From: Escherichia phage Ec_Makalu_003
DNA length: 64,000 nt
Sequence record: MN882349.1
Direction: 5' to 3' (one strand)
The number at the start of each line of letters is the position of its first letter. The stretch's first letter is position 1. Under the pieces are notes generated by a model. It ran no database searches, had not been told where the DNA came from, and saw only the letters and a list, made by a program, of their open reading frames with translations. Below, piece by piece: positions 3,510 through 40,577 of this stretch. The translations under genes and the position numbers were made by a program.

Positions 3510-3535
3510 GCTATTCTCCTGATTGGGGGTGTTTG

Positions 3536-3543
3536 TATAAATA
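3536..3543 (+). promoter_or_regulatory. T4-type late promoter TATAAATA upstream of uvsW
   Basis: exact TATAAATA about 40 nt before the uvsW ATG. Confidence 0.5.
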
Positions 3544-3579
3544 TTTGTATACTGTATTTATTGAGTGAGGCTATTCGCT

Positions 3580-5082
3580 ATGCAAGATATTAAAATTCAC
3601 TTTCTGAACTACTCCCATGTTCAAATTGAATGTAGCGATTCAATTTTATTAGAAATGCGAGATTATTTTAGTTTTGAAGTCGAGGGAGCGCGGTTTCAAA
3701 AAAGATTTAAGTATGGCGGATGGGATGGGCGTATTCGTCTATTAGATTACAATGGAAAGTTGCCAATCGGCCTAACTAAAACCGTTGGCATCTTCGCTAA
3801 AAATATGGGTTATTCTGTTTGGGTAGACCCTCGCTTATTCGAGAAAGAACAGGTTACAGAAGAAGAGATCACAAAATGGTGTAACGACTTAGAATTATAT
3901 TCCGGTGCTAACAGGATCACCCCGCATTGGTATCAATCAAAGGCTGTCTTTGAAGGTATTCATCATAAACGCCGTATGTTAGTTTTGCCTACGTCCGCTG
4001 GTAAATCTGCGATTGCTTGTATGTTGTCTCGCTGGTACTTAGAGAACTACGAAGGGAAAGTGCTGATCATCGTTCCTACCACGTCGCTAGTGCTGCAAAT
4101 GCGTGATGATTTTGTTGATTATCGCCAGTTTCCATATGAAGCAATTCATACTATCATGAGCGGTACTAGTAAACACGTAGGTGATCGCCTGATCGTTGTT
4201 AGTACGTGGCAATCAGCATGTAAACAGCCTCGTGAGTGGTTCCAACAATTCGGGATGGTTATTGTTGACGAATGTCACAAGGCCACGGCTAAAAACCTGC
4301 TAAACATCGTTACTGATATGGATCATTGCCAATTTAAGATCGGTATGACTGGTTCCCCTCGTGACGGGAAAGCTAACATGATGCAGTATGTCGGGCTTTT
4401 CGGTGATATTTCTAAGATCGTGAGTATTGACCGCCTGATGGAAGAAGGGCAGGTGACAAAACTGAAAATTAACTGTCTTTTTCTTCGTTATACCGATGAG
4501 GAATGTAGCGCGGTTAAGGGGAGAGAATATGCGGAAGAGATCAAGTATATTACATCTAACCCACGACGTAATAAGTTTGCTTGCAATTTGGCGCTAAAAC
4601 TCGCTAAGAAGGGCGAAAACGTATTCCTGATGTTCCGCAACACTAAGCACGGAAAACTTATGTATGATGCGTTACAGAAGGTACACGACAAGGTTTATTA
4701 TATTGACGGTGGAGTTAAGACAGAAGAACGTGATGAATTTAAGAAAATGGCGGAAGGTGACACTGGCTTAATCTGTGTTGCGTCTTATGGTGTGTTCTCT
4801 ACTGGTGTTTCCATCAAGAACTTGCATCATGTTATTTTCGGTCATCCAGTGAAGGAATCAACTATCGTTCGTCAGAGTATCGGTCGTGCATTGCGTAAAC
4901 ATGGTTCTAAGGATATTGCTACCGTTTGGGATCTTATCGATCATTTGGCGGTGAAGACAAAGAGCAAGAATGCTAAGAAACAGTTTAGCCACCTTAATTA
5001 TGCTCTTAAACATGCCCTTGAAAGAATAAAAATTTACAACACCGATCGATTCGAATATGTCACGAAAACAATCGAGATTTAA
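3580..5082 (+). CDS. uvsW: UvsW DNA helicase (SF2)
   Basis: near-collinear match to recalled T4 UvsW (FSFEV..YGGWDGRIRLLDYN, LPTSAGKS, VDECH, KLKINCLFLRY); ATG 3580 with SD GAGTGAGG; the track start 3565 is a GTG. Confidence 0.9.
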   Translation: MQDIKIHFLNYSHVQIECSDSILLEMRDYFSFEVEGARFQKRFKYGGWDGRIRLLDYNGKLPIGLTKTVGIFAKNMGYSVWVDPRLFEKEQVTEEEITKWCNDLELYSGANRITPHWYQSKAVFEGIHHKRRMLVLPTSAGKSAIACMLSRWYLENYEGKVLIIVPTTSLVLQMRDDFVDYRQFPYEAIHTIMSGTSKHVGDRLIVVSTWQSACKQPREWFQQFGMVIVDECHKATAKNLLNIVTDMDHCQFKIGMTGSPRDGKANMMQYVGLFGDISKIVSIDRLMEEGQVTKLKINCLFLRYTDEECSAVKGREYAEEIKYITSNPRRNKFACNLALKLAKKGENVFLMFRNTKHGKLMYDALQKVHDKVYYIDGGVKTEERDEFKKMAEGDTGLICVASYGVFSTGVSIKNLHHVIFGHPVKESTIVRQSIGRALRKHGSKDIATVWDLIDHLAVKTKSKNAKKQFSHLNYALKHALERIKIYNTDRFEYVTKTIEI

Positions 5083-5087
5083 TAAAT

Positions 5088-5112
5088 AGGGGCTTTAATG
5101 CCCCTTTATTCT
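5088..5112 (+). terminator. rho-independent terminator after uvsW
   Basis: aggggctttaatgcccct hairpin followed by ttattct. Confidence 0.55.
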
Positions 5113-5125
5113 ACGGAGATTAAAA

Positions 5126-5362
5126 ATGATTAGCTTTAAACGTTTTTTGGTTGAGGCCGCTATTGACGGTTTTATGAGTAAGATTTATTCTTGTAATACT
5201 ATCGAGGGATTGAATGAACTTGAGGCATATTATGAGAAGCGCAAGAAAGAAACAGAATTGAAACCTGCTGATGATATTTCGATTCGTGATGCCATCGCTG
5301 GACGCCGTAAGCAATTGGAGGCCGACAACGAGCCAGAAGAGGAGCCGGAAGAGGATTTTTAA
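5126..5362 (+). CDS. uvsW.1: UvsW.1-like small protein
   Basis: 78 aa acidic protein immediately after uvsW, as in T4. Confidence 0.65.
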   Translation: MISFKRFLVEAAIDGFMSKIYSCNTIEGLNELEAYYEKRKKETELKPADDISIRDAIAGRRKQLEADNEPEEEPEEDF

Positions 5363-7944: not shown

Positions 7945-9031
7945 TGTCTCAATAAAACTTTATCAGGATTATGAGGCGTTTCTAAATCATCGCTTTATAG
8001 AATTGGGTGCTACCTTTGTTACAATGACTCTGCGTGATTCGATTCGTGGGGTGAACGAAGGATTGTTGCAATTCTATGATAATAAAGCGATGCATACAAA
8101 ATTAAACGGGCGGGAGATCATTCAGATTTCGTTATCTACTGCCAACACAGATGAAGTGTTCAACCGAATCTATGGGATCTCTCATAGTAATGTAACGCTT
8201 GACCAAAAATCTGACAACATTTTAACATTCCAGTTAAAGAGCTATCACGAAACACTAAACCTTAAATTTTCTCGCGCATTGACAAATAACGCTGTTAATA
8301 ACGTAACCAGCATGATTGACGCTATCTATAAAGAAGTTCCTTTATGGAAACCAACCATAAAAGGTGATAACGTGGTTATTCCTCGTTGTCCGTGGGTTAG
8401 TACCATAAATGACTATATGGATTTTGTGAGGGCATACGGGCAAAGCGTAGAAACCGAGTCTTTCGTGTATTGCTGGGAAGATTTTGATGGTATAACGATC
8501 GCTGGACATGATACAATATTAAAAAATGAGCCAATACCAGCTATAATCTGTGAGCCTAGACTCATTGGGCAATTTATTGATATGTCGCCTAATCTGATGG
8601 TTTTTAATTTCGAGTGGAAGACTAAGAGCAATGCTAAAGTTAAAAATTCATTTAGCAATGTGACATACACAACTATTGATTTTGTTACTAAGCAGTATAA
8701 TAAAATTATTGTTGGTAATGGGGATAATATTGCACACTTTGCTCATGGTGGCGCTTATGGCGATTTAACTTATAAGAATGCGTTTTTGGAAGGTTCTAAA
8801 CTTGCCACAATAGAACAATATGATTCATATGCTACCGCCGTGTGTCACGGTAATTTTTCGTTGCGCCCCGGTATGGTTATTCGATTCTTTGATGAGAAGC
8901 AACAAGCACGCAATGATTTTATTGTTGACGAAGTGGTGCATGAAATTAGCCGAGAGCAATCATTAACTCACCTGTATATGATCGGTAACAGCGAAGAATT
9001 GCAGGAAGTCAAATTTGAAGGTAAGATATAA
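7922..9031 (+). CDS. 27: baseplate hub subunit gp27
   Basis: 369 aa in T4 order; overlaps the gp51 end. Confidence 0.75.
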   Translation: MQRTGFPNVSIKLYQDYEAFLNHRFIELGATFVTMTLRDSIRGVNEGLLQFYDNKAMHTKLNGREIIQISLSTANTDEVFNRIYGISHSNVTLDQKSDNILTFQLKSYHETLNLKFSRALTNNAVNNVTSMIDAIYKEVPLWKPTIKGDNVVIPRCPWVSTINDYMDFVRAYGQSVETESFVYCWEDFDGITIAGHDTILKNEPIPAIICEPRLIGQFIDMSPNLMVFNFEWKTKSNAKVKNSFSNVTYTTIDFVTKQYNKIIVGNGDNIAHFAHGGAYGDLTYKNAFLEGSKLATIEQYDSYATAVCHGNFSLRPGMVIRFFDEKQQARNDFIVDEVVHEISREQSLTHLYMIGNSEELQEVKFEGKI

Positions 9032-9549
9032 TGACAGAAACTAAACCTATGTTAAAATTTGTTGTTCCTGTAAAAAAATTAGAGATAAACGGGAAACATA
9101 TCAAGATCCCAAAAATGGGGATTAAGCAACATCGATTATTAAAAGATGTTCGTAGCTGTGATGAAACATTAAAGATTCTTCTTGATTCAATCTGTCCTGG
9201 GTTAAACGCTGCCGAGTCTGAATTGGTTATGCTTAACCTTTGTGCGTTTAACGGTAAGTGTCTGGAAGAAAAAGATGGTCTTAAGCTGTCTGATGTGTAT
9301 ATTTGTACAGAGACTGAATTTACTTTAAATGGTAAAGTCTTTAAATTTAAAAATCCAATGTATACTTCTGACCCCATTATCGATGACGCTGATTTCTTGA
9401 GTCATCATTATCACGATCCTAGTGTAGACTTCCATGATTTCCCAGCTTTTATTATGGATTGGGCTACAGGATTAAGAAAAACTATTGCGCTGGATACACC
9501 GGAAGGTACTATCTATGGTGGAATTAACATATTGGATCGCCTATCATGA
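9031..9549 (+). CDS. 28: baseplate hub distal subunit gp28
   Basis: 172 aa; ATGA-type coupling with gp27 and gp29. Confidence 0.7.
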   Translation: MTETKPMLKFVVPVKKLEINGKHIKIPKMGIKQHRLLKDVRSCDETLKILLDSICPGLNAAESELVMLNLCAFNGKCLEEKDGLKLSDVYICTETEFTLNGKVFKFKNPMYTSDPIIDDADFLSHHYHDPSVDFHDFPAFIMDWATGLRKTIALDTPEGTIYGGINILDRLS

Positions 9550-11279
9550 ATGACGCATTAACATCATTTCGCGGGATGCGCAAGGAAGCGGAAGAAAACC
9601 CGATTGATAAACTTAACAAATTAGATAAACTTGATTCTATTGATAATTTGCAAGCCGCGACCGAATTGGTAGCGGAGACAGTAGAACAAAAATCTAATGA
9701 AGTTGTTGGTGCGGTAGAGGATAACACCGCAGCCAACGAATTGACGGCAGAAAATACACAATCTACCGCTGGCAATACCCAAAAAACTTATGAAGAATTG
9801 CAAAAACTCAATAATTTCTCTTCTCAGATGAATGAGAAATTACGTGGTTTTGGTGTTATGATGGAACGTAGATTTGGTGTTGTCAGTAAAATGGCTAGTG
9901 GTATTGGTGCGATTGAAGAAGCACTGAAAAAACCGGAACAACCGCAAACAATGCCATCACCTCAGCCAGTTTTGCCTACTGTACCTGAACAGCCTAATAA
10001 TGACAACTATCAAGGTCTTCCAAAGAAAAAACCAGATGTTGATGACCGAAAGAAAAAGAACGCCACAGATAAGCGTAATGCGGATTCTATGGAAAATCTT
10101 CTTAAAGTTGTTCGTGGAGGATTTAAAGAAACCATAGGTATCTCTAATAAGGTCTTAGGGATGTTATTTAAGATCACTTTGACCGCTATGGCAGAAGCCG
10201 CAAAATGGGGTGCTATTTTGATGGGTATTGTTTTTGTCATTGATACCCTGATGGTTCATTTCAGATATTGGAGCGATTTATTCGAGACAAAATTCAGTGA
10301 ATTTATGGATAAGGCCGGAGATTGGGCTGGTCCTATTAGCGATATTTTAACTACTGTTCGTCAGGTTAGAGATTATTGGTCTAAAGGAGAATATAAAGAA
10401 TTAATTAAATCGCTGGTTATGGGTATTGGTGATGCATTCTATAAAACCTTTATCCAACTTGATCGAATTATCACTACTGGTATTGCTAAAATTCTTCGCA
10501 TGATCCCTGGTATGGGTGATTATGCCGATAATTTAGAATACGGTGCTTTAAAGTCTGCTGTTGCTAAAGGCTATAAGCCAAATGACCGAGAACTCGAATT
10601 AATGGATAAGATCGAGTCTGAACACGAAGAAGACAAATATGGAGAGCGCACAGGATGGACAGGAAAAGCCCGTGATATTGGCGAGGCCATAGGCGAATCT
10701 ATTAAAGATAAATTTAATGAAGGTCTTGTTAGTCTGGGCTGGAGAGATCAAAAGGATGTTGACGCAGAGAAACGACAAGAAGAATTAAAACGCGGGGAAT
10801 ACAAGTCTGTTTCTGCTGAACAACGATCTGCTAGTCGTAAACTTAAAATTAAAAGCGAGGGAGCGATCAATAATATTAATGAAGTTATGGAGAATTTGAG
10901 CGGTGACTATGACAAAGAAAGAATGGAAGAGTTGAAAAAGGATATTGATGTTTACCGTGAGCAAGTTCAAGATCCTACATTAGTTGAAAGTGATCGTTCT
11001 CAGTTAGAGCGTCTTATTGAAAAATTTGATGAGATGTATGCTGATAAAACTAAGGGTGTGGTTCCAACTAATCCTGTTCCTGCAACTGAAACGGAAACAG
11101 CAAAACAAGCGGAACGTACTGAACAAATGCAGAAACAAGCTGCAATCCAGCAACAAACGACAAATCAGACCTCAAACGTAAATAATACACAAATTGTAAC
11201 AAACAATAGAACTATTAAACAGGGTGCACCAACAACTAGAATTGATGCCCCCGGTACAATTAATATGGGGAACTTTTAA
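9546..11279 (+). CDS. 29: baseplate hub / tail length determinator gp29
   Basis: 577 aa; size and position as T4 gp29; hydrophobic central segment. Confidence 0.75.
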   Translation: MNDALTSFRGMRKEAEENPIDKLNKLDKLDSIDNLQAATELVAETVEQKSNEVVGAVEDNTAANELTAENTQSTAGNTQKTYEELQKLNNFSSQMNEKLRGFGVMMERRFGVVSKMASGIGAIEEALKKPEQPQTMPSPQPVLPTVPEQPNNDNYQGLPKKKPDVDDRKKKNATDKRNADSMENLLKVVRGGFKETIGISNKVLGMLFKITLTAMAEAAKWGAILMGIVFVIDTLMVHFRYWSDLFETKFSEFMDKAGDWAGPISDILTTVRQVRDYWSKGEYKELIKSLVMGIGDAFYKTFIQLDRIITTGIAKILRMIPGMGDYADNLEYGALKSAVAKGYKPNDRELELMDKIESEHEEDKYGERTGWTGKARDIGEAIGESIKDKFNEGLVSLGWRDQKDVDAEKRQEELKRGEYKSVSAEQRSASRKLKIKSEGAINNINEVMENLSGDYDKERMEELKKDIDVYREQVQDPTLVESDRSQLERLIEKFDEMYADKTKGVVPTNPVPATETETAKQAERTEQMQKQAAIQQQTTNQTSNVNNTQIVTNNRTIKQGAPTTRIDAPGTINMGNF

Positions 11280-17019: not shown

Positions 17020-17049
17020 TTGATACTCCTTAGTAGTTCGTTTCGGTAT

Positions 17050-17084
17050 GGGTGTATTATGATATACACCCTCTGTTATGTCAA
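17050..17084 (-). promoter_or_regulatory. early promoter with stem-loop (PeSL-like)
   Basis: minus strand reads TTGACA, then palindrome GGGTGTAT..ATACACCC around CATAAT, then conserved leader with AGGAG. Confidence 0.6.
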
Positions 17085-17090
17085 CAACTT

Positions 17091-17270
17091 TTAGAACATT
17101 TTTGAAATTAATTCTGCTTTGATTTCGCAGAGAACATCTAAAGATTTCTCGTCACCCGCTTTTGCTGCTTCTGCTTGCATTTTTGAAATGGCTTCAATGT
17201 CAGTGCAATTATAAGCCGCTTGAACTTTAGCGATTGCGATGATTGCCGATTCGATGGTTAAGTGTTTCAT
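17091..17270 (-). CDS. hypothetical protein, 59 aa
   Basis: ATG at 17270 preceded by AGGAGAATCAAAC; downstream of the PeSL at 17303. Confidence 0.4.
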   Translation of the reverse strand: MKHLTIESAIIAIAKVQAAYNCTDIEAISKMQAEAAKAGDEKSLDVLCEIKAELISKMF

Positions 17271-17302
17271 GTTTGATTCTCCTTTCGTTTCGGTATGTGT
17301 GC

Positions 17303-17331
17303 AGTATAGGGGATCGCCGATCCCCTGTCAA
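17303..17331 (-). promoter_or_regulatory. early promoter with stem-loop (PeSL)
   Basis: minus strand: TTGACA, 17-bp perfect palindrome GGGGATCGGCGATCCCC as the spacer, TATACT. Confidence 0.65.
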
Positions 17332-17338
17332 CAACTTT

Positions 17339-17857
17339 TTAGTTATTTTTTAATTGCTCATCTTGCAATAATGCAATCACATGCTGGCGATGTTCTTCCG
17401 ATTGAGGAACACCGAAAAAGTTTGTTTTGTAGAAATACTCTAATCGGTCTTCTCGTGTGCTCTCTTCCATCATGATCGCGGGTAGTCCAAGATTTCGGAA
17501 ACGTCGCTTTTCTGCTGGCGTAAAATCACTGTAATACAACATAGAATCATCATTACCAGCAATGCTAAACTCATCCTTCATAAAGGAGAATATTGCGTTT
17601 AAACGCTGTTTACCGTCCACGATTTCGATCTCATAGCGAGAGCCATCATCAATCTTAGCCATTGCGATAGCACCAACCGGAAAATCATTAATCAGGTTTT
17701 CGATAAACATACGTTTGTTTTCGGTGTCCCATACCAAAGGACGCTGATAATCTGGGTTCATGTTGATATAGCCATCTTCTAACCACGCCTCATAAACAGA
17801 GATGACAAAGTTTTTAGTATTGGTATAGTAACGGCGTTTAGGCGTTAAACGGTTCAT
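17339..17857 (-). CDS. DUF262 / ParB-like (DGQQR-type) domain protein
   Basis: motifs DYQRPLVWD and VDGKQRL; ATG at 17857 with AGGAGA inside the upstream gene end (track start 17893 is a TTG). Confidence 0.6.
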   Translation of the reverse strand: MNRLTPKRRYYTNTKNFVISVYEAWLEDGYINMNPDYQRPLVWDTENKRMFIENLINDFPVGAIAMAKIDDGSRYEIEIVDGKQRLNAIFSFMKDEFSIAGNDDSMLYYSDFTPAEKRRFRNLGLPAIMMEESTREDRLEYFYKTNFFGVPQSEEHRQHVIALLQDEQLKNN

Positions 17858-17858
17858 G

Positions 17859-18191
17859 TTATAGTCTCCTGAATGGATCATCACGTAAATCAATATCTTT
17901 TAAGAACTCATCCCATGAATGGCGGATAATGTTCTTAATTCTCCAGATAAGCGCAGGGATTGAACGCTCTCCCATCTGGAAGTAAGGATCATATGATCCA
18001 TATGCCCAATATGCTACTACAATTCCACAATCGGCGCAATAATATTCTATTTCACTTGCTGGCGACCAAAGTCCATCAATATGATCACGGATCTTGCTTT
18101 CGATGTTATGGCTATGGCAATCAGGGCAACGGATGCAATGACCTTGTTTATCGTAATTTGACGTTAGCGAATACTTAAACAATCTCATCAT
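17859..18191 (-). CDS. zinc-ribbon protein, 110 aa
   Basis: CIRCPDCHSH...YYCADCG; coupled to both neighbours. Confidence 0.5.
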   Translation of the reverse strand: MMRLFKYSLTSNYDKQGHCIRCPDCHSHNIESKIRDHIDGLWSPASEIEYYCADCGIVVAYWAYGSYDPYFQMGERSIPALIWRIKNIIRHSWDEFLKDIDLRDDPFRRL

Positions 18192-18904
18192 AGATCCTTA
18201 TTGGCTTCAAATACTGCCTTTGCGAATCCTCGCGGGGTAAGTGACCTGATAGTCTTTGTTCTGGTTCCTTTCCCGCCTAGCTTAGAATGCTGTTTACTGT
18301 ACCCTTTATTAATCTGCAACGGTTTCTTTTCTGGCATTATAAAGCCTTGTCCGGTCCATAAGCAAGTCTTTTTCGGGTACATATCACGGGCGGCAATATA
18401 CTCAGGAAACGTAGGATGCTTATCATCTTCCGGCAAATAACCGCCATATTCCCACGGATGGAACATGTAATCAGGCTTACGCCACATGCTAGAGATAACG
18501 CTTACAGGATTCTCTATCATGTAGGGAACTCCTAGCCATTCACCCAAATAAGCGGTTATTTTAGCTGCCCTTACATCATGAACTTGAATTAATGGTCCTT
18601 GTTCTCGTTTCTTTCGTTCAAAGTGCGCAGCGCCACTAACAGCTAAATTGGTGCATGGTGGGAATGCAAAGATAATATCCGGTTTCCCCCATTCAAGGTC
18701 CATTGCTCTTTCCAGCCAATTTAAATCAATCCATGTGTTTACATATGTAATGTTTGGATGTTCAAATCTGGTATTATATTTTTTGTATGTACCGTGGTCG
18801 CCATCGTCAGCATTAAAGCAGATCACCTTATGACCTGCTTTAGCCCATTCTAACCCCATTATCCCCGATCCGTCAAAGTTGCAGAATATTAATTTTTGTT
18901 TCAT
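18188..18904 (-). CDS. minimal C5-methyltransferase-fold protein
   Basis: motif I-like FCNFDGSGIMG, motif IV-like FAFPPCTNLAVSG, motif VI-like YMIENP; only 238 aa with no obvious target-recognition domain. Confidence 0.55.
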   Translation of the reverse strand: MKQKLIFCNFDGSGIMGLEWAKAGHKVICFNADDGDHGTYKKYNTRFEHPNITYVNTWIDLNWLERAMDLEWGKPDIIFAFPPCTNLAVSGAAHFERKKREQGPLIQVHDVRAAKITAYLGEWLGVPYMIENPVSVISSMWRKPDYMFHPWEYGGYLPEDDKHPTFPEYIAARDMYPKKTCLWTGQGFIMPEKKPLQINKGYSKQHSKLGGKGTRTKTIRSLTPRGFAKAVFEANKDL

Positions 18905-19394: not shown

Positions 19395-19434
19395 TGTTTG
19401 ATTCTCCTAAGTGGTATCTCGTCTTGATGGTTGT

Positions 19435-19463
19435 ATTGTAGGGGAGTTATCCTCCCCTGTCAA
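19435..19463 (-). promoter_or_regulatory. early promoter with stem-loop (PeSL)
   Basis: TTGACA, spacer GGGGAGGATAACTCCCC, TACAAT. Confidence 0.6.
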
Positions 19464-19477
19464 CACTTTTTATAAAA

Positions 19478-19645
19478 TTATTTGTTAATTTCTGGTGCGT
19501 TGCTAGGATAGTAACCTTCTTTAACTCCGAGGTATTTTGCAACCATCCCTACAATCTTCTGTGCTACTACAATGTCAAATTTCAGATAATCTTCGCCGTG
19601 GGTTTCAATGATATATGCTTCACATGCTGCTTTAGTCTCGAACAT
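19478..19645 (-). CDS. small conserved protein, 55 aa (copy 1; paralogue at 22760..22927)
   Basis: MFETKAACEAYII...GVKEGYYPSNAPEINK; second copy differs by about ten amino acids, with additional synonymous differences. Confidence 0.55.
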   Translation of the reverse strand: MFETKAACEAYIIETHGEDYLKFDIVVAQKIVGMVAKYLGVKEGYYPSNAPEINK

Positions 19646-19678
19646 TTTGATTCTCCTATTTCGTTTCGGTATGTGTGT

Positions 19679-19707
19679 ATTATAGGGGATCTCCCGATCC
19701 CCGTCAA
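19679..19707 (-). promoter_or_regulatory. early promoter with stem-loop (PeSL)
   Basis: TTGACG, spacer GGGATCGGGAGATCCCC, TATAAT. Confidence 0.6.
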
Positions 19708-19721
19708 CAACTTTTTTAAAA

Positions 19722-20003
19722 TTATTCGTGATTAGTTTCGATATTGTGCATTTTGCACCAGTTCAGCCAATCGCCAAGATCTTGATAGTTGATGCTTTTA
19801 TCTGCTGCCATCGTTTTTGTCTTGATACCCATATGTGCGTTATGAGTAAGCATTTTTACAGTGAACTCAATTTTATCGCCTTTAGCTTTAACATCAACCA
19901 GTTTGGTCCACTGGCTACCAGCACCGCGAATGTTCATACCAACGATGTTTCCGATGTATGCTTCTTTGTTGTTCAGGATTTCGGTTGCTTTGATGAATTT
20001 CAT
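19722..20003 (-). CDS. hypothetical protein, 93 aa
   Basis: ORF after a PeSL-family promoter. Confidence 0.5.
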   Translation of the reverse strand: MKFIKATEILNNKEAYIGNIVGMNIRGAGSQWTKLVDVKAKGDKIEFTVKMLTHNAHMGIKTKTMAADKSINYQDLGDWLNWCKMHNIETNHE

Positions 20004-20036
20004 TTTTGATTCTCCAGTTCGTTTCGGTATGGGTGT

Positions 20037-20065
20037 ATTATGCTATGTTCTTACTTTGGTGTCAA
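20037..20065 (-). promoter_or_regulatory. early promoter, PeSL family with degenerate stem
   Basis: TTGACA, 17 nt, CATAAT, conserved leader. Confidence 0.5.
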
Positions 20066-20073
20066 CAACTTTT

Positions 20074-20343
20074 TTAGATATTTTCAGAAATAAATTTTAA
20101 AACTTGACGTAAATGTTTCTCATCTTTGATAGTCGCCGGAAGTTCTTCTTTTACTTCCTGTGCAAGATAGATATTTCCGTTCCAAGTGAAAGACCCGTCT
20201 TCGTTTACGCGATAGCTGAACATCCATTCGCAATCATTTTCGATTTCATATACACACAGAAGGGTGTAATCTTCAAAGCTATTGATTTCAAGGTCGAAGC
20301 CGTGGCGTTTTGCAAAGTTGGTAGTGGTTTTAGTCAGTGCCAT
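20074..20343 (-). CDS. hypothetical protein, 89 aa
   Basis: ORF after a PeSL-family promoter. Confidence 0.5.
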   Translation of the reverse strand: MALTKTTTNFAKRHGFDLEINSFEDYTLLCVYEIENDCEWMFSYRVNEDGSFTWNGNIYLAQEVKEELPATIKDEKHLRQVLKFISENI

Positions 20344-20383
20344 TGTTTGATTCTCCTAAGTGGTATCTCGTTTCGATGGGTGT

Positions 20384-20412
20384 ATTATGCTATAGGCGTG
20401 ATCAGGTGTCAA
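20384..20412 (-). promoter_or_regulatory. early promoter, PeSL family
   Basis: TTGACA, 17 nt containing TGATCA, CATAAT. Confidence 0.5.
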
Positions 20413-20469
20413 TGCCTTTTTTAAAATTTTATGCAATAAAAAAGCCGACACTAAGGTCGGCTAATAAAA

Positions 20470-20778
20470 TCATTTAGACAAATAATCATTCAGTGCAATC
20501 CGGTCGGCATGTTCCGGCGTTACATCAATCGCAATCACTTTAACGCGTGCTTTCTTGCGACCTGGGTTTTCTCGTAACCAGTGCTCATGACCGTGAACAT
20601 TTTTATACTGCGATGCTTCTTCGAAGGTACGGATCGGACCAGGGTAATCAGCGTAAAGGATCTCTAGGTCATCGGTGATGTAAAAATATACGTTGTAATT
20701 ACTGTTCTCTAGCTTAAGCAGAGACTTTCGGAACATTGGGAGATTTTCGCGGGTAAATTCAAAAGTAATATCTTTCAT
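20470..20778 (-). CDS. HxH-HW family protein A, 102 aa
   Basis: ATG at 20778 with GAGGA; motifs YFYITDD, HGHEHWL, VIAIDV. Confidence 0.5.
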   Translation of the reverse strand: MKDITFEFTRENLPMFRKSLLKLENSNYNVYFYITDDLEILYADYPGPIRTFEEASQYKNVHGHEHWLRENPGRKKARVKVIAIDVTPEHADRIALNDYLSK

Positions 20779-20827
20779 AGTATTATCCTCAATAGTTGGA
20801 TGAAAAGGGGGCTTAACGCCCCATATA

Positions 20828-21115
20828 TTAAAACAGTCCTTCCTGTACACCGTAGTAGAGTTCGTCGCTGATAATTTCATTAATGCGACGGTGTGCATAT
20901 TCCTGATTTGCGAAGTTGTCAGCAAGTTCTACTTTAGTTTCACCGTCATGAGTCCATTTAGTGATAACTTTACCATCTGCAAATTTGAAGTTGAACTCTT
21001 TAGCTACTGCATCGCGTACCAGACGTGCGAACTTGTTGTTACGGATTGCATTATCGGTTTCGTGTGCAGCGTGAGCAAATTTGTTAACTTTCAGAGTGAT
21101 AGTGATGTATGCCAT
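20828..21115 (-). CDS. hypothetical protein, 95 aa
   Basis: ORF followed by hairpin ggggcttaacgcccc and a T-run. Confidence 0.5.
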   Translation of the reverse strand: MAYITITLKVNKFAHAAHETDNAIRNNKFARLVRDAVAKEFNFKFADGKVITKWTHDGETKVELADNFANQEYAHRRINEIISDELYYGVQEGLF

Positions 21116-21161
21116 AATTTGATTCTCCTAGTTAGAAAGTGTATCTCGTTTCGATGGGTGT

Positions 21162-21190
21162 ATTATGCTATACACCCGATCTTATGTCAA
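21162..21190 (-). promoter_or_regulatory. early promoter with stem-loop (PeSL)
   Basis: TTGACA, then GGGTGTAT/ATACACCC inverted repeat flanking CATAAT. Confidence 0.55.
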
Positions 21191-21197
21191 CACTTTT

Positions 21198-21476
21198 TTA
21201 TAAAATAATTTTTTGATATTTTTCTATGATGTTTGTGTAATCCACATCAACCGCTATCACCGTTGCTTCGAATCCACCGTTTAGCCAATGGCTATGGTCA
21301 TGATCGTGAAAGAAACCAAGACCAGTACGAAGACCTTCTTTATATTCGGCGCGTACATTTAGATCATCATCGATAAACAGATAAAACCATGAATTTTTAC
21401 TAGGATTGATGATACAACCTTTCAGATTAGGGAGAATATCACGACTAAGAATAAACTTATCACCTACTTTGAACAT
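21198..21476 (-). CDS. HxH-HW family protein B, 92 aa
   Basis: ATG at 21476 with GTGAGGA; motifs FYLFIDDD, HDHDHSHWL, VIAVDV. Confidence 0.5.
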   Translation of the reverse strand: MFKVGDKFILSRDILPNLKGCIINPSKNSWFYLFIDDDLNVRAEYKEGLRTGLGFFHDHDHSHWLNGGFEATVIAVDVDYTNIIEKYQKIIL

Positions 21477-21480
21477 AATA

Positions 21481-21801
21481 TTAGTCCTCACTTATAAGGT
21501 CAAACCAATTGTTTTTCGCATAATGCTTAATGCGTGCTTGATCTGCTTCCGCTGGTGATAGATTCCATGCAACCACTACAACTTCTGACGCGTCGTCATC
21601 CGTTTCTGATACCCAATGATTGTGATTCATACAGTTATTTGCGATCGAGTGAGCAAATGATTTCATCACTGGAGACGTATAATCATAGTAACGGATTTTC
21701 AGATTTTCATCAACATACAAGTAGATCGTATAAGGTTTATATTCAGTAACCAGTAACAGACAGTTACGCAATTCTGGGAAAATCTTTTTAGTTAATTTCA
21801 T
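21481..21801 (-). CDS. HxH-HW family protein C, 106 aa
   Basis: ATG at 21801 with GAGGA; motifs IYLYVDEN, NHNHWV, VVVVAWN. Confidence 0.45.
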   Translation of the reverse strand: MKLTKKIFPELRNCLLLVTEYKPYTIYLYVDENLKIRYYDYTSPVMKSFAHSIANNCMNHNHWVSETDDDASEVVVVAWNLSPAEADQARIKHYAKNNWFDLISED

Positions 21802-21802
21802 T

Positions 21803-22021
21803 TTATAATCCTCGGTCGCGGCTATAGTACACGGTACGCCATACAATTTCATGTTTCGTGTCGCTCCAGCACACGATCTCATTTACTCTTAAATCTTTGT
21901 TATCAACAAAAGATGAACATTGTGACGCTTCTTTCATCATTTTATCTGCTGTTTTCTCATCAAATACAGCACAGATTTCTTTATACACTCGATAATCTTT
22001 GAATTGACTCTGGATACCCAT
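21803..22021 (-). CDS. small protein, about 72 aa (paralogue of 21981..22238)
   Basis: QFKDYRVYKEICAVFDEKTADKMMKEASQCSSF vs KFKDYKAYQQILRVYDAEFAEKMMEDASKCPSF. Confidence 0.45.
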   Translation of the reverse strand: MGIQSQFKDYRVYKEICAVFDEKTADKMMKEASQCSSFVDNKDLRVNEIVCWSDTKHEIVWRTVYYSRDRGL

Positions 22022-22238
22022 AATTAACACCATTCCAACCAATTGTTTTTGAGAAAACGTTTATCCACTGTTGAGTGTAGCATGTTTCTTTCCATGATAC
22101 AATACGAGTAGAATAATGGTTTTTGTTTCCAGAAAAGGACGGGCATTTTGATGCATCTTCCATCATCTTTTCGGCGAACTCCGCGTCATATACCCGCAGG
22201 ATCTGTTGATATGCTTTATAATCTTTAAATTTGCTCAT
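21981..22238 (-). CDS. small protein, 85 aa (paralogue of 21803..22021)
   Basis: tandem paralogue overlapping the next gene in another frame. Confidence 0.45.
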   Translation of the reverse strand: MSKFKDYKAYQQILRVYDAEFAEKMMEDASKCPSFSGNKNHYSTRIVSWKETCYTQQWINVFSKTIGWNGVNYGYPESIQRLSSV

Positions 22239-22503
22239 AATTGTTAACTACCTTATCAGCTTCTTTTATTGTTTTTACATCAACTGCGATAATCCGTAAA
22301 GGTTCGTCGAAGGTCCACCAGTGGTCATGAATATCAGCTTGTGATTTATCACCAAAGGAATCACGAATATCATTTTTACATTTATAGCTAATATGGCCTT
22401 CATAGTCAACATAAAGGTAATTATCGAAAATCGGAGTTTTTAAGATCATACCGAAAAATCTTTCTTTGTGTGTCTTATCAAGTGTTGCAGTAATTCGCAT
22501 CAT
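22225..22503 (-). CDS. HxH-HW family protein D, 92 aa
   Basis: motifs YLYVDYEG, IHDHWW, IIAVDV. Confidence 0.5.
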   Translation of the reverse strand: MMRITATLDKTHKERFFGMILKTPIFDNYLYVDYEGHISYKCKNDIRDSFGDKSQADIHDHWWTFDEPLRIIAVDVKTIKEADKVVNNYEQI

Positions 22504-22515
22504 AATATATTCCTC

Positions 22516-22695
22516 TTAGAAAGGGATGGTCATTTCTTGAGCTTGTACATTCTCGTTAGGATTAAACTTCATCCAACCGATATTGTCTACCAGCATATGT
22601 ACATTTTTATCATATCCTACGTGAGTAGTCAACACTAAATGTGCTTTACCTTCAACGATGATTTCCATGTACTTCTGAACTTCGATAGCTTTCAT
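22516..22695 (-). CDS. hypothetical protein, 59 aa
   Basis: ATG at 22695 after the conserved leader GGAGAATCAAA. Confidence 0.35.
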   Translation of the reverse strand: MKAIEVQKYMEIIVEGKAHLVLTTHVGYDKNVHMLVDNIGWMKFNPNENVQAQEMTIPF

Positions 22696-22721
22696 TTTGA
22701 TTCTCCGTTTGTTGTCTTGAT

Positions 22722-22756
22722 GGGAGTATCTTACTACTCCCTTTAATCATTGTCAA
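22722..22756 (-). promoter_or_regulatory. early promoter with stem-loop (PeSL)
   Basis: TTGACA followed by palindrome GGGAGTAGTAAGATACTCCC. Confidence 0.55.
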
Positions 22757-22759
22757 CTA

Positions 22760-22927
22760 TTATTTGTTAATTTCTGGTGCGTTGCTCGGATAGTAACCTT
22801 CTTTAACACCCAGATATTTTGCAACCATTCCGGTGATCTTCTGTGCTACTACGATATCGAATTTCAGGTAGTCTTCACCGTGGTTTGCTACAATGTATGC
22901 TTCGCATTCTGCTTTAGTCTGGAACAT
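22760..22927 (-). CDS. small conserved protein, 55 aa (copy 2; paralogue of 19478..19645)
   Basis: MFQTKAECEAYIV...GVKEGYYPSNAPEINK. Confidence 0.55.
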   Translation of the reverse strand: MFQTKAECEAYIVANHGEDYLKFDIVVAQKITGMVAKYLGVKEGYYPSNAPEINK

Positions 22928-22961
22928 TTTTGATTCTCCTATATCTCGTTGGTATGTGTGC

Positions 22962-22990
22962 ATTATAGGGGATCACCGATCCCCTGTCAA
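22962..22990 (-). promoter_or_regulatory. early promoter with stem-loop (PeSL)
   Basis: TTGACA, spacer GGGGATCGGTGATCCCC, TATAAT. Confidence 0.65.
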
Positions 22991-22995
22991 CAACT

Positions 22996-23289
22996 TTATA
23001 ATGCTTTATACGCGTATTTCATAAATTTGTCTGCCACTTCATTGGCATGTTCAGATTCTACGCCTGATTCGAGAACAATAGCTAGGTCGGTTTCGTCATT
23101 CCCGCCGTACCAATGATTTGATGTTCGATTTTTTTCAATTGGAAATTGGTCACTTTTATCTGTGCGACAAAATACATCTAAATGCTCGTCGATGTAAAAG
23201 ATCCAATCTTCATAAAGAATAACGGTATTAGCAAGATTTTTATTGCCTTCAACGAAAGGTTCCGCGACAAATAGCTTAGTTTGTTCCAT
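22996..23289 (-). CDS. HxH-HW family-like protein F, 97 aa
   Basis: ATG at 23289 with GAGGA; FYIDEHLDV...SNHWYGG; weakest family member. Confidence 0.4.
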   Translation of the reverse strand: MEQTKLFVAEPFVEGNKNLANTVILYEDWIFYIDEHLDVFCRTDKSDQFPIEKNRTSNHWYGGNDETDLAIVLESGVESEHANEVADKFMKYAYKAL

Positions 23290-23305
23290 AGTAATTTCCT
23301 CAAAA

Positions 23306-23497
23306 TTATACAGTTTCGTAAACTTCCCAATGTTCAGCGCCAACACGCTTAACGAAAAGGTTTTCTTTGATGTTATTCATAAACGTCTGGATGGATTTAA
23401 TGCGGTTTGAAGGTTTCCATTCTTCGTTGGCATTGCGTCGATACATCATAACATTACCAGTTCGCTTATATTCAGCAACCATTTTAAGACCACACAT
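23306..23497 (-). CDS. hypothetical protein, 63 aa
   Basis: ORF between family members. Confidence 0.4.
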   Translation of the reverse strand: MCGLKMVAEYKRTGNVMMYRRNANEEWKPSNRIKSIQTFMNNIKENLFVKRVGAEHWEVYETV

Positions 23498-23554
23498 AAT
23501 ATTATCCTCAATTTGTGGGAGAGTATTACCCCTCCCAATGATTGTTATGTTATA

Positions 23555-23875
23555 TCACACAAAATGGCGTGTCAATGCTTCTTTTGCGGTTCCGCTAAGA
23601 CTTTCAATCTCGCCTGGCATAACATCAACCGCCAGAACTTCTACAACATCTTCGGACCCTAACCAGTGAGTATGGCCTTTGTAGAACTTGATAACCAGAC
23701 CACCTTCCTCGTCCCATTTAACGCTATCGCTAGCCCACCACACATCACCGTCGATAAAGTTGATGTAAAGCACACTACGCCACATTGAATTAATTACTTT
23801 CAATACTGCGCCTTTCATCTCTTCCACGGTATGGTCTTCCATTTTGAAGACCTCACCTACCTGAACTTTTGCCAT
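23555..23875 (-). CDS. HxH-HW family protein E, 106 aa
   Basis: motifs LYINFIDGD, KGHTHWL, VLAVDV. Confidence 0.5.
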   Translation of the reverse strand: MAKVQVGEVFKMEDHTVEEMKGAVLKVINSMWRSVLYINFIDGDVWWASDSVKWDEEGGLVIKFYKGHTHWLGSEDVVEVLAVDVMPGEIESLSGTAKEALTRHFV

Positions 23876-23892
23876 TTAGTCACCTCTCTTTA

Positions 23893-24072
23893 TTACATAA
23901 CAATCACGCCAGCCGTTGAAAGTTGATGTTTCAACTGAGCATTTTCTGCTACTGTCAAATCAATGATTTCTTGTGACGCTGCAATCATATAACCATTGGT
24001 GATATTGTTTTGCATCAGTTCAATGGTTTCTTCGTTGTAGCGGATTTTAGCGATGATTTCGTTGAAGTTCAT
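23893..24072 (-). CDS. hypothetical protein, 59 aa
   Basis: ATG at 24072 downstream of the PeSL at 24107. Confidence 0.4.
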   Translation of the reverse strand: MNFNEIIAKIRYNEETIELMQNNITNGYMIAASQEIIDLTVAENAQLKHQLSTAGVIVM

Positions 24073-24106
24073 AATTGATTCTCCTAGTTCGTTTCGGTAT
24101 GTGTGC

Positions 24107-24135
24107 AGTATAGGGGATCGCCGATCCCCTGTCAA
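24107..24135 (-). promoter_or_regulatory. early promoter with stem-loop (PeSL)
   Basis: identical to the 17303-17331 element: TTGACA, GGGGATCGGCGATCCCC, TATACT. Confidence 0.65.
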
Positions 24136-24148
24136 CAACTTTTTTGAA

Positions 24149-24625
24149 TTATTTTTCTTGATGCTCGCGCTCGTACTTTTCGAAATAAAATTCTACTGGC
24201 TGATCGTGGATTGAAAGCAAGCCAAAGCGTTTAGCCGCACGTAATCCCATGTTACGTTGAATGTACTTCTGGAAGTTCTCGCGTATACACTTACGCCAGT
24301 ATTCTAAGCCCATACAGCTTTTGTAAAGATTGCATTGCACACAAGCCGGATTCATGTTGTCAAGTATATCGTGCTCCGGTTTATGCATTCCTACAACCTT
24401 ATACTTCCACGATCCATCATCATTACGGGCAATTCGTCCATTTTCATCATAGACTACTTTTGAGCGTCGCAATACTGGTTTGATGTGGTCTGCGTGCCAG
24501 CGATCCCCTAGTTCCTCGCCACAATAGGCACAACGCCCACCGTATTTCATTTTCAGGATCTGGCGTTGCTCTTTCTTTGACAATTTTTTAGGTTTAGGGG
24601 CTTTCGCCCCTTCATTATCACACAT
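24149..24625 (-). CDS. HNH endonuclease
   Basis: CAYCGEELGDRWHADHIKPV and NMNPACVQCN; start overlaps the DNA ligase stop by 8 nt. Confidence 0.7.
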   Translation of the reverse strand: MCDNEGAKAPKPKKLSKKEQRQILKMKYGGRCAYCGEELGDRWHADHIKPVLRRSKVVYDENGRIARNDDGSWKYKVVGMHKPEHDILDNMNPACVQCNLYKSCMGLEYWRKCIRENFQKYIQRNMGLRAAKRFGLLSIHDQPVEFYFEKYEREHQEK

Positions 24626-26114
24626 CGAATACCTCTTTTACTGTATTTGCAGTGGTCTTGTCGTAGCGAATACGTTTGATGATTGGGAGAAATAAAGAGA
24701 ACTCCGGTTCATCTTCTTTACGTGATTTGCTGCGGATATATCCGTTGCATGTCATCTCAATGACTTTTCCGATCAGGTTATGACGGTCAGCCCATAACAT
24801 TTCTCGGTCGAGTTCATTTCGACGATCGAACGGAATTACACGTTCAATACCATCATCATCTTTTTCGGTTGTGGTGTCGGTCAATCCCGATCCGGTGTTA
24901 GTCGTCATTCGTCCGCACGCACTACGGACAGTAAAACCGCCTACCTTGTTAGGATCTTTACTATGCGGATATACATCAACAATTTCCGCGTCGAAGTCAA
25001 TCACTTCTTTAAATTTAACCTGATCTTTACTGCGACGATCTTCAAATACACCATGTAAATTTTTAAGGATAATACCTTCTAATCCCATGTTGACATAACG
25101 ATGATATACTTCGCGAGCTTCATCGATATTGTTAACTACAGTGTTTTCGATTATCTGAACACGAGGATCGTTAAGTTCTTCAACAATCTGTTTTAGTTCT
25201 TCGAATCGATCTTTATATTGCTTCGTTGCTTTCTCGTTTCCGTAATACACATCACGGTCGATAACATCCCAGACAGTGTAAACAATACATTGGGCTTCTT
25301 CTTTTGGAATAGTTCCTTTCAGTGATTTGTTGAGGATACCATTTCCGGTCTGACGGTCTGCAACAACGGATTCTTTCACTGCTTCCGCTACTGGCGTTAA
25401 TGGCATTTCCTCTTCTTCAAATATCCATGATAGAGTACCATCATAAACGCTCTCAACGAAGTTCTGCGCTGGTGTTTGAGAAAGGGTAGGCATATATACC
25501 AACTCACCATCTAAAACAATTCCACGGCCTCGTAGACGCTCTAAAACAGCAAACAAATCATCCAGCCCCTGATAGGTATTACCTGAACGGGTATAGATTG
25601 CTAATGTTTCTCCGTCAATATCAGCCATACCACGAGCGCCATCGCTTTTAAGTTGTGCATACGCCGGATATTTGATATTGGCAATAGTCTTATCAGAACA
25701 TGACGATGCAAGGTGGCACGGCTGCTGAGGAATCAGCTTCTTCCATACCTTGTTTGCGGTGGTAGCGGAACAACCGCATTCCAGATCACGATTCAGGACC
25801 ATCATTGCAACTTTAGCATCATCTTCTGACAAGCAAGTCAGAGTATCGGTAACTAGCTGTAATGCAGCATTACCAGTTACTTGACGCGTGGCAAGTTTAT
25901 TTTTAAAGACCTGTAATGCACCGGATAAAGACAATACAGACGAATAGCGAGACGGTTTATCGTATTTCTTTACGCCAAACGTAACCTGCTTGCAATATGC
26001 CAGATAAAAGCATTCTTTCAGCGTTTCATTGCTTGCAGATTCTTTCAGGATCTTTTCTTTCAGCGATGTTTTGTCAGTGGCTGCAAGCTGATTAATGATA
26101 TTAAGAATTGACAT
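24618..26114 (-). CDS. 30: ATP-dependent DNA ligase gp30
   Basis: motifs QLKSDGAR (KxDG adenylation), VLDGELVY, RDLECG, as recalled from T4 ligase; ATG at 26114 (track start 26120 is a GTG). Confidence 0.9.
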   Translation of the reverse strand: MSILNIINQLAATDKTSLKEKILKESASNETLKECFYLAYCKQVTFGVKKYDKPSRYSSVLSLSGALQVFKNKLATRQVTGNAALQLVTDTLTCLSEDDAKVAMMVLNRDLECGCSATTANKVWKKLIPQQPCHLASSCSDKTIANIKYPAYAQLKSDGARGMADIDGETLAIYTRSGNTYQGLDDLFAVLERLRGRGIVLDGELVYMPTLSQTPAQNFVESVYDGTLSWIFEEEEMPLTPVAEAVKESVVADRQTGNGILNKSLKGTIPKEEAQCIVYTVWDVIDRDVYYGNEKATKQYKDRFEELKQIVEELNDPRVQIIENTVVNNIDEAREVYHRYVNMGLEGIILKNLHGVFEDRRSKDQVKFKEVIDFDAEIVDVYPHSKDPNKVGGFTVRSACGRMTTNTGSGLTDTTTEKDDDGIERVIPFDRRNELDREMLWADRHNLIGKVIEMTCNGYIRSKSRKEDEPEFSLFLPIIKRIRYDKTTANTVKEVFDV

Positions 26115-26580
26115 TTTCACCTCGTTTTGTTAAACGTTCACGAATATCATTTAGGATACTACAAAATTCCGATTCGGTCAATATGGTCTTTAACGGATCA
26201 GTTCCACCTATGCTATGACGCAATTTCTTATTTCCGGTAGCGAGCAATGCTTTACAAAAATCTGGGTTATTTCGTGCCATCGTAACAAATGCCAGATGTA
26301 CCAGTCTGTAATAATGCTCACTCATTCGATGAATCGGGCGACCCTGAAAATATAGCATGTGATTCTCTATCTTTTCAGTCCTTCCGGTTCTTTTTGCTTT
26401 GCAGCCGTGCATCAAAAAGATTTCTCTTTGTCTCTGAGGGTTCTTAAATCTTAGCCCCTGTAAAAATCCTTCTGTGCTGTTAATATCGCAACCAAATAGA
26501 CGGAATGGCCTTTTATTGAAATTACTCAACTCGCCAGATGGATAAGGTCCACCCGCATAGATATCAATTTCAGAAGTCAT
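26101..26580 (-). CDS. NADAR-like domain protein (YbiA-like)
   Basis: 159 aa; GELSNFN, STEGFLQGLRF, ALLATGNKKL and ILNDIRERL parallel E. coli YbiA as recalled; overlaps the ligase start. Confidence 0.55.
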   Translation of the reverse strand: MTSEIDIYAGGPYPSGELSNFNKRPFRLFGCDINSTEGFLQGLRFKNPQRQREIFLMHGCKAKRTGRTEKIENHMLYFQGRPIHRMSEHYYRLVHLAFVTMARNNPDFCKALLATGNKKLRHSIGGTDPLKTILTESEFCSILNDIRERLTKRGENVNS

Positions 26581-40165: not shown

Positions 40166-40193
40166 ATTATACATCATCTGTATTCGGTGTCAA
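40166..40193 (-). promoter_or_regulatory. early promoter, PeSL family without a clear stem
   Basis: TTGACA, 16 nt, TATAAT. Confidence 0.5.
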
Positions 40194-40519
40194 CCTTTTT
40201 GTTCCATGAAAAGCGGTGCTGTTTCTTCTTTCAGTTTAATAACTAGCGCGGAAACTTCATCAAGAAAATCTTTTTCCATATGAGCAAGCATTGATTTAGA
40301 ATCTTTGATGACTTTCAAAGAATATTCACTTAGATTTCCTTTTCCTAACAATAATGCAGGATACACACTATGTGGGATCTCGATTTCATGATATTCGCTC
40401 ATAGTATAATATTTGTGAATTTTTAAATCTATATTTCTTCGTTGTACGTCCACATCAGCAATGACATACAGAAGTTCGATTTTATCACTTTTCTGGGAAA
40501 GGGTAGCATTCAAAAACAT
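40190..40519 (-). CDS. hypothetical protein, 109 aa
   Basis: ATG at 40519 preceded by GGAGGA. Confidence 0.5.
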   Translation of the reverse strand: MFLNATLSQKSDKIELLYVIADVDVQRRNIDLKIHKYYTMSEYHEIEIPHSVYPALLLGKGNLSEYSLKVIKDSKSMLAHMEKDFLDEVSALVIKLKEETAPLFMEQKG

Positions 40520-40549
40520 TGTTAATCCTCCGTTGTTTCGATGTGTGGT

Positions 40550-40577
40550 ATTATACATTACCGCGCCAGAATGTCAA
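40550..40577 (-). promoter_or_regulatory. early promoter, PeSL family
   Basis: TTGACA, 16 nt, TATAAT. Confidence 0.5.

Follow-up and report, generated by a model that had tools for sequence, protein, structure and literature searches.

Six small paralogous proteins in the alt-ligase block of Escherichia phage Ec_Makalu_003 form one old, uncharacterised family

Six small open reading frames (ORFs) between positions 20470 and 23875 were analysed in a 64,000-nucleotide (nt) stretch of Escherichia phage Ec_Makalu_003 (record MN882349.1; hereafter the window), which is part of a Krischvirus (RB49-like, T4-type) genome. The six are confirmed as real genes belonging to one old paralogous family. All lie on the minus strand, at the positions at which the first-pass annotation had reported ORFs with shared motifs, and they coincide with the annotated RB49 coding sequences (CDSs) 197, 199, 200, 203, 206 and 208. 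Their products are read here, tentatively and at a little under an even chance, as early, non-redundant binders of host or defence components.

The genes were designated p1 to p6, and their occurrence was counted by tblastn (E ≤ 1e-10, ≥80% coverage). On the minus strand, p1 (20470..20778; 102 amino acids (aa); RB49p197 orthologue; phrog_9345) was found in 56 records, p2 (21198..21476; 92 aa; RB49p199; phrog_17255) in 53, p3 (21481..21801; 106 aa; RB49p200; phrog_9345) in 56, p4 (22225..22503; 92 aa; RB49p203; phrog_15972) in 56, p5 (23555..23875; 106 aa; RB49p208; phrog_16486) in 55, and p6, the most divergent (22996..23289; 97 aa; RB49p206; phrog_15965), in 55 records that fall into two identity classes. 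A GAGG-type Shine–Dalgarno sequence lies 6–9 nt ahead of the ATG in all six genes. The family proteins are soluble, approximately 85–115 aa long and mostly acidic (isoelectric point (pI) 4.2–6.4), with one basic exception (pI 9.1). They had been described as a tandem array. The six paralogues stand in one 3.4-kb block and supply 6 of its 13 genes, but the arrangement is not strictly tandem: seven unrelated small ORFs are interspersed among them, and p3 and p2 are the sole direct neighbours, the p3 stop codon lying 4 nt before the p2 start. A second paralogue pair occurs in the same block, formed by the orthologues of orf201 and orf202 (21803-22021 and 21981-22238, minus strand, overlapping by 41 nt), both of which match phrog_8471 (E 2e-33 and 4e-35).

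Single-sequence phmmer searches inside the window joined p1 and p3 at 6e-13 and p2 to p1, p3 and p5 at about 1e-5, and missed p4 and p6. When a hidden Markov model (HMM) was built from p1, p2, p3 and p5, p4 (1.8e-6) and p6 (0.009) ranked next among the 182 window ORFs, the following ORF scoring 0.17, and composition-preserving shuffles equalled the observed score in none of 2000 trials for p4 and in three of 2000 for p6. Alignment of the p6 subfamily with the p1–p5 subfamilies by hhalign, orthologues added, gave a probability of 98.3% and E 1.8e-14 over 72 columns, and the weaker membership first proposed for p6 is borne out by this profile–profile match. Metagenomic members bridge the subfamilies: P0095, which is p6-like, also matches p4, p2 and p5, and P0096, which is p4-like, matches p5, p2 and p1. 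A family HMM run on the whole window recovered exactly these six ORFs and no others; the ORF at 40190-40558 was considered as a seventh member and rejected (E values of 0.17 and 4.4 with the four-sequence and the full family HMM, respectively). The PHROG profiles 9345, 17255, 15972, 16486 and 15965 match the six proteins over their full length (E 3e-46 to 4e-72), and all five groups are annotated as 'unknown function'. Because cross-matches of 2e-5 to 0.03 occur among groups 9345, 17255 and 16486, and in view of the hhalign result, the five function-less PHROGs belong together.

The possibility that the similarity is due to chance or composition, or that the ORFs are decaying, non-functional remnants, draws on the low pairwise identity of the paralogues (16–30%), on the failure of single-sequence phmmer to find p4 and p6, and on the spurious summed matches that the Y-L-Y-I-D-x-x-L-x-V hairpin yields to NHL-repeat propellers. 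It is contradicted by the profile and shuffle statistics, by a motif order that is identical in all members, the diverged metagenomic ones included, by confident and concordant AlphaFold models, and by the presence of intact ORFs with Shine–Dalgarno sites in more than 50 genomes at substitution ratios well below 1; this explanation is considered effectively refuted. The shared motifs, the significance of which the first-pass annotation had left to alignment statistics, proved significant by HMM ranking, by shuffling and by hhalign.

The consensus of the family reads [YF]-x-Y-[IV]-D-x-x-L-x-V ... F ... H-x-H-W ... V-[IL]-A-x-[DN]-V-x-P-x-x-A-D, the C-terminal strand motif running on into the conserved P-x-x-A-D helix start. 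Among 30 diverse members, only the last His and the Trp of H-x-H-W are invariant, and the preceding His and the Tyr are each present in more than 90%. The segment had initially been given as H-x-H-x-H-W; the H-x-H-W part stands, but the first His, over-read from p1 and p2, is not conserved across the family. In p6 of this window the corresponding motifs are S-N-H-W and V-L-E-S-G-V, the preceding His being replaced by Ser.

Structures were modelled with AlphaFold2 using family alignments for p1 (pLDDT 87.0, pTM 0.81) and p2 (pLDDT 80.8). In both models the elements follow in the same order, namely strand b1, a short helix, a b2-b3-b4 meander, a second short helix, the H-x-H-W turn or short helix, strand b5 (the V-I-A-V-D-V strand) and a C-terminal helix, and as predicted the two members share one small alpha/beta architecture. 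The loop before H-x-H-W has the lowest model confidence and is the most variable part among the paralogues in both length and sequence, yet it is kept within each orthologue group. A Foldseek search of BFVD gave significant matches to paralogues from other Krischvirus phages only, and the single fold envisaged in the first-pass annotation is supported by this recovery and by the equal element order of the two models. A PDB sequence-profile search returned no match below E 0.2, and in fold comparisons with known structures all scores were below significance, Tad2 and AcrIIA7 turning up for one of the two models only.

The motif may also be taken as a binding site for a small ligand (a metal ion or a nucleotide-type molecule), formed by the invariant H-x-H-W and the conserved Tyr. 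The proteins would then be immune-signal sponges in the manner of Tad1, Tad2 and Acb2, or minimal metal-dependent enzymes, with the paralogues tuned to different ligands; we regard this as unlikely, though not markedly so. It would account for an invariant His–Trp pair, with one further His and one Tyr nearly so, in proteins of 16–30% identity; the models place the motif at the N-terminal end of a short helix, where phosphate or metal sites are common, which is compatible with it, a natural two-domain fusion described below hints at oligomeric pockets, and known sponges are similar in size and early expression. On the other hand, there are only two conserved His residues, of which one is replaced in p6 of this window and in P0086, and the candidate acidic ligands vary (some members have T or N in place of the Asp of Y-I-D, others N or G in place of that of A-x-D-V), none being invariant; the lost His and the varying Asp residues therefore argue against obligatory metal binding. 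Pfam gave no matches to the DUF2829, HIT, metallo-beta-lactamase or cupin families, the fold scores were all sub-significant, with Tad2 found for one model of two, and 85–115 residues are small for an enzyme.

Several named families were compared directly. The Tis1 immunity protein (6ox6_B), AcrIIA7 (8kbi_A) and Tad2/DUF2829 (9eib_A) are alike to the family in size (76–104 aa), in their small beta-sheet-plus-helix build and in their early or accessory context, but no sequence-profile link to them was found, and the resemblance is one of kind, not of membership. Membership of the Tad2/DUF2829 anti-Thoeris sponges was rejected, there being neither a DUF2829 profile match nor a significant fold match. 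The GNAT acetyltransferase core and the N-terminal half of the metallo-beta-lactamase fold were also compared; the H-x-H-x-H of p1 and p2 recalls H-x-H-x-D-H. Metallo-beta-lactamases carry the H-x-H-x-D-H motif in an alpha-beta/beta-alpha sandwich of at least 200 residues; the family has about half that fold size and no conserved first His, and neither the p2 model nor Pfam gave a match. GNAT acetyltransferases were rejected on similar grounds, the family being about half their size and devoid of the Q/R-x-x-G-x-G/A acetyl-CoA loop and of the b6/b7 strands, with no GNAT match for the p2 model and nothing in Pfam. The hallmarks of HIT proteins (H-phi-H-phi-H-phi-phi, with its three conserved strand-borne His residues, and an alpha+beta dimer fold) were not found, and the cupins and the NHL-repeat beta-propellers, with their tandem NHL blades, were likewise discarded. 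Searches of the six proteins against Pfam, NCBIfam and PADLOC, and a relaxed Pfam search with 30 members, gave scattered, non-recurring single matches (PROCT, DUF7644, T4_Y03C at E 0.1, Cupin_2 at 0.2); the anti-phage defence profiles of PADLOC gave zero matches, and NCBIfam sub-threshold noise only. The statement in the first-pass annotation that no family could be assigned agrees with these results, no named family fitting in the Pfam, NCBIfam, PADLOC or PDB-profile searches.

Of about 58 Krischvirus records, 53–56 contain any given one of the six copies. Exactly six members in identical order were found in eight of eight Krischvirus genomes (this window, RB49, kaaroe, ELT3, SFHK24, Skers, JK32 and Phi1), among which orthologues have a mean identity of 84–98% and the summed pairwise NG86 ratio of non-synonymous to synonymous substitution rates (dN/dS) is 0.12–0.27. 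Distinct allele classes exist for p6, p4 and p1, p6 splitting into groups of ≥95% and 60–80% identity. The pattern is one of purifying selection with some allelic variation, not of ongoing amplification or pervasive diversifying selection, and on the dN/dS values from the eight genomes diversifying selection was rejected at the whole-gene level. The initial description of a hypervariable block under diversifying selection therefore fails on near-universal presence, constant gene order, low dN/dS and the age of the duplications.

A word-seeded search of 5.8 billion proteins gave 84 matches, and an exhaustive HMMER profile search of 1.84 billion cluster representatives gave 21 at E ≤ 1e-3, two of which were spurious; the new members all bear the signature. 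All members of placeable source come from Krischvirus or from closely related uncultured T4-like sister lineages, and the tblastn matches were confined to Escherichia and Shigella Krischvirus-type phages. In contig L002 (20 kb, from an uncultured T4-like phage), P0092 and P0099 occupy the same genomic slot, flanked by ligase on one side and alt on the other, the ligase being 72% identical to that of Krischvirus; a search of IMG/VR for loci related to P0092 returned no relatives. On contig L011 (2.1 kb, Logan SRR8048117) the gene order is orf209-like, p5-like, orf204-like, a fusion of two p2-like domains, p4-like and p3-like. The fusion, P0088 (L011 823-1434), is a 203-aa protein in which two p2-like family domains are joined head to tail by a linker of approximately 15 residues, and it brings the number of family domains in this stretch to five. 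The number of family domains thus varies by lineage: L002 has two, L011 five or more and Krischvirus six. Because the diverged sister-lineage members assign to individual paralogues, and because paralogue identity is 16–30%, the subfamilies are older than the split of the lineages and the duplications are old. In T4, the family HMM was run on six-frame ORFs from two regions totalling 32 kb (36-52 kb and 120-136 kb) and found nothing below E 0.5, and no T4 protein was among the matches of the global searches.

Two candidate distant relatives, P0097 and P0098, were rejected. They are NHL-repeat propellers of which six blades each match profile positions ~28-57 only, that is, the b3-b4 hairpin, and their similarity is summed over repeats and does not reflect homology. 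The hairpin (Y-L-Y-I-D-x-x-L-x-V) resembles the core of an NHL blade, and propellers of 11–13 blades sum to whole-protein E values of ~1e-4 to 1e-3. This likeness is a trap for automated annotation.

A megablast search with positions 20000-24200 matched 58 phage records, all Escherichia or Shigella Krischvirus-type (Ec_Makalu_001 at 98%, RB49 at 96%). In RB49 the counterpart of the block is bounded by alt, which encodes the RNA polymerase ADP-ribosyltransferase, and gene 30, which encodes DNA ligase, and the CDSs of this interval are all annotated as hypothetical, save one methyltransferase and one HNH endonuclease. Because the alt-gene 30 interval of T4 contains alt.1 alone, the block is a lineage-specific insertion and belongs to what Arbiol et al. 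2010 (PMC2839356) called 'hyperplastic regions'. Its intergenic gaps are filled by two repeat families, D1 and D3, which bear near-consensus TTGACA-17-TATAAT promoters scoring 11–12 of 12, and D1 also bears a GGGGATC...GATCCCC stem-loop. Activity measurements in RB49 and phi1 have shown that elements of this type, the PeSLs, act as strong early promoters of the sigma70 type and as terminators (PMC2839356).

Three such cassettes, all on the minus strand, precede family genes. The first (24088..24160; D1; TTGACA-17-TATACT with the GGGGATC...GATCCCC stem-loop; promoter scan 11/12) heads unit 1, in which the PeSL at ~24135 is followed by orf209, p5, orf207 and p6. The second (22943..23015; D1; TTGACA-17-TATAAT; 12/12) heads unit 2, with the PeSL at ~22990 followed by orf205, orf204, p4, orf202, orf201, p3 and p2. 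The third, a PeSL-type early promoter cassette (21141..21204; D3; TTGACA-17-CATAAT; 11/12), heads unit 3, with the PeSL at ~21190 followed by orf198 and p1 and then by an intrinsic-terminator-like hairpin with a T-run (20443..20462), 8 nt past the p1 stop codon. Since the six family genes are located behind PeSL early promoters, as judged from their sequence and from published work on this cassette type, they are probably transcribed early by host RNA polymerase, within the first minutes of infection.

A 7-kb stretch contains at least nine PeSL-type intergenic cassettes, all on the minus strand. Every one has a sigma70-like early promoter, often together with the GGGGATC...GATCCCC stem-loop, and they match the RB49/phi1 elements of Arbiol et al. 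2010. Those of family D1 lie at 17037-17109, 17284-17356, 19660-19732, 22943-23015 and 24088-24160, and those of D3 at 19414-19477, 20016-20079, 20363-20426 and 21141-21204. RB49 ORFs 192, 195, 196, 196.1, 210 and 211 are missing from this genome, only PeSL-containing spacers being left in their place (window ~19646-19721, 20344-20469 and 24073-24148, versus 3332-3808, 4617-5127 and 8800-9561 in RB49, L001), and the family genes between them are untouched. The indel hotspots are therefore the neighbours and not the family. A 'hyperplastic' location need not mean that a gene set is in flux; the six genes are stable residents among mobile neighbours.

Further features were recorded around the block. 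Through a direct repeat of 172 nt with 86% identity (19477-19648 versus 22759-22930), a 55-aa ORF of phrog_8009 is present twice, as the orthologues of RB49p191 and RB49p205; both copies lie immediately downstream of a D1-family PeSL cassette, and the repeat looks like a PeSL-mediated cassette duplication. An HNH endonuclease gene (24149-24625, minus strand) lies directly downstream of ligase gene 30 (24618-26120, minus strand), its start overlapping the 3' end of the ligase gene by 8 nt, and marks the edge of the accessory block. The 110-aa RB49p188 orthologue (17859-18191, minus strand) contains two C-x-x-C pairs (CIRCPDC ... CADCG), a zinc-ribbon-like motif, and lies directly upstream of a Dcm-like methyltransferase gene (18188-18904).

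In a further reading, the proteins would serve the phage's own early programme as transcription or replication modulators or as helpers of PeSL-mediated recombination; this is held to be distinctly unlikely. The genus-wide occurrence, under purifying selection, of close to one copy of every paralogue in each genome and the embedding of the genes among PeSL cassettes speak for it, and Arbiol et al. raised, as a speculation, the idea of a PeSL-binding helper, a specific protein that might bind to the GGGG...CCCC stem-loop (PMC2839356). By contrast, most of the proteins are acidic, which does not favour the binding of nucleic acids, the Pfam scans detected no DNA- or RNA-binding domain, T4 is without a member in the two scanned regions or among the global-search matches, and genes of hyperplastic regions have been described as largely non-essential (PMC2839356).

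In the favoured reading, as binders, the paralogues would not be redundant: each would bind or inhibit, stoichiometrically, a host or defence component different from those of the others. The scaffold that they share would present the H-x-H-W element, either as part of the structural core or as a ligand or metal contact, and the loop between b4 and H-x-H-W might be the specificity determinant, because it varies between paralogues and is conserved within orthologue groups. The proteins possibly act as dimers, as the natural two-domain fusion P0088 suggests. An early accessory-region context fits a host-takeover or anti-defence role, and to that extent the repertoire of such functions suggested in the first-pass annotation is in keeping with the data, but the argument from diversification on which it was built fails. 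Four points weigh against the binder interpretation. No homology links any member to a target; near-universal conservation in the genus is less typical of arms-race genes, and a housekeeping role in the phage lineage fits equally; an invariant His and Trp are more usual in a ligand or catalytic site than in a pure protein-binding surface; and the early timing of the six genes is deduced from promoter sequence.

The six genes were set against two published classes of phage gene. PeSL-flanked ORFan cassettes (Arbiol et al. 2010, PMC2839356; Comeau et al. 2014, PMC4122927) were described in the same region of the same phage group, RB49/phi1, and the family genes are likewise small database-orphan ORFs downstream of a sigma70-like early promoter and stem-loop. 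They differ in that the presence/absence polymorphism of these cassettes, as in ORFs 192, 195, 196, 210 and 211, which are gained and lost and of which all five are absent here, is not seen in the six stable genes. ORFan gain and loss and the cassettes are described in both papers, and in the passages searched ORFs 197, 199, 200, 203, 206 and 208 are not mentioned as one family. The T4-type paralogue expansions of alt, alt.-1, alt.-2 and RB49ORF183c (Nolan et al. 2006, PMC1524935) are similarly local early-gene duplications in the same neighbourhood, but there a known ADP-ribosyltransferase has been duplicated, whereas the six-gene family has no known parent; it is not among the paralogues listed in that paper (PMC1524935). 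No description of the family was found in the searchable literature. It is a new, uncharacterised family inside a familiar kind of phage gene set.

A stronger version of the binder interpretation, which we think improbable, is that the six paralogues are an unrecognised fold family of early anti-defence proteins, each neutralising a different Escherichia coli immune system or sequestering a different immune signal via an H-x-H-W pocket. If this were true, the array would amount to a compact set of counter-defence genes shared across the genus. Coliphages of the RB49-like type are widely isolated and are used in therapy collections. The 3.4-kb block is annotated wholly as 'hypothetical', yet experiments in search of new host-takeover or anti-defence functions would have a well-defined target in it, because 6 of its 13 genes form one conserved early family that has an invariant His–Trp pair (in H-x-H-W), no match among solved structures and a naturally fused dimer.

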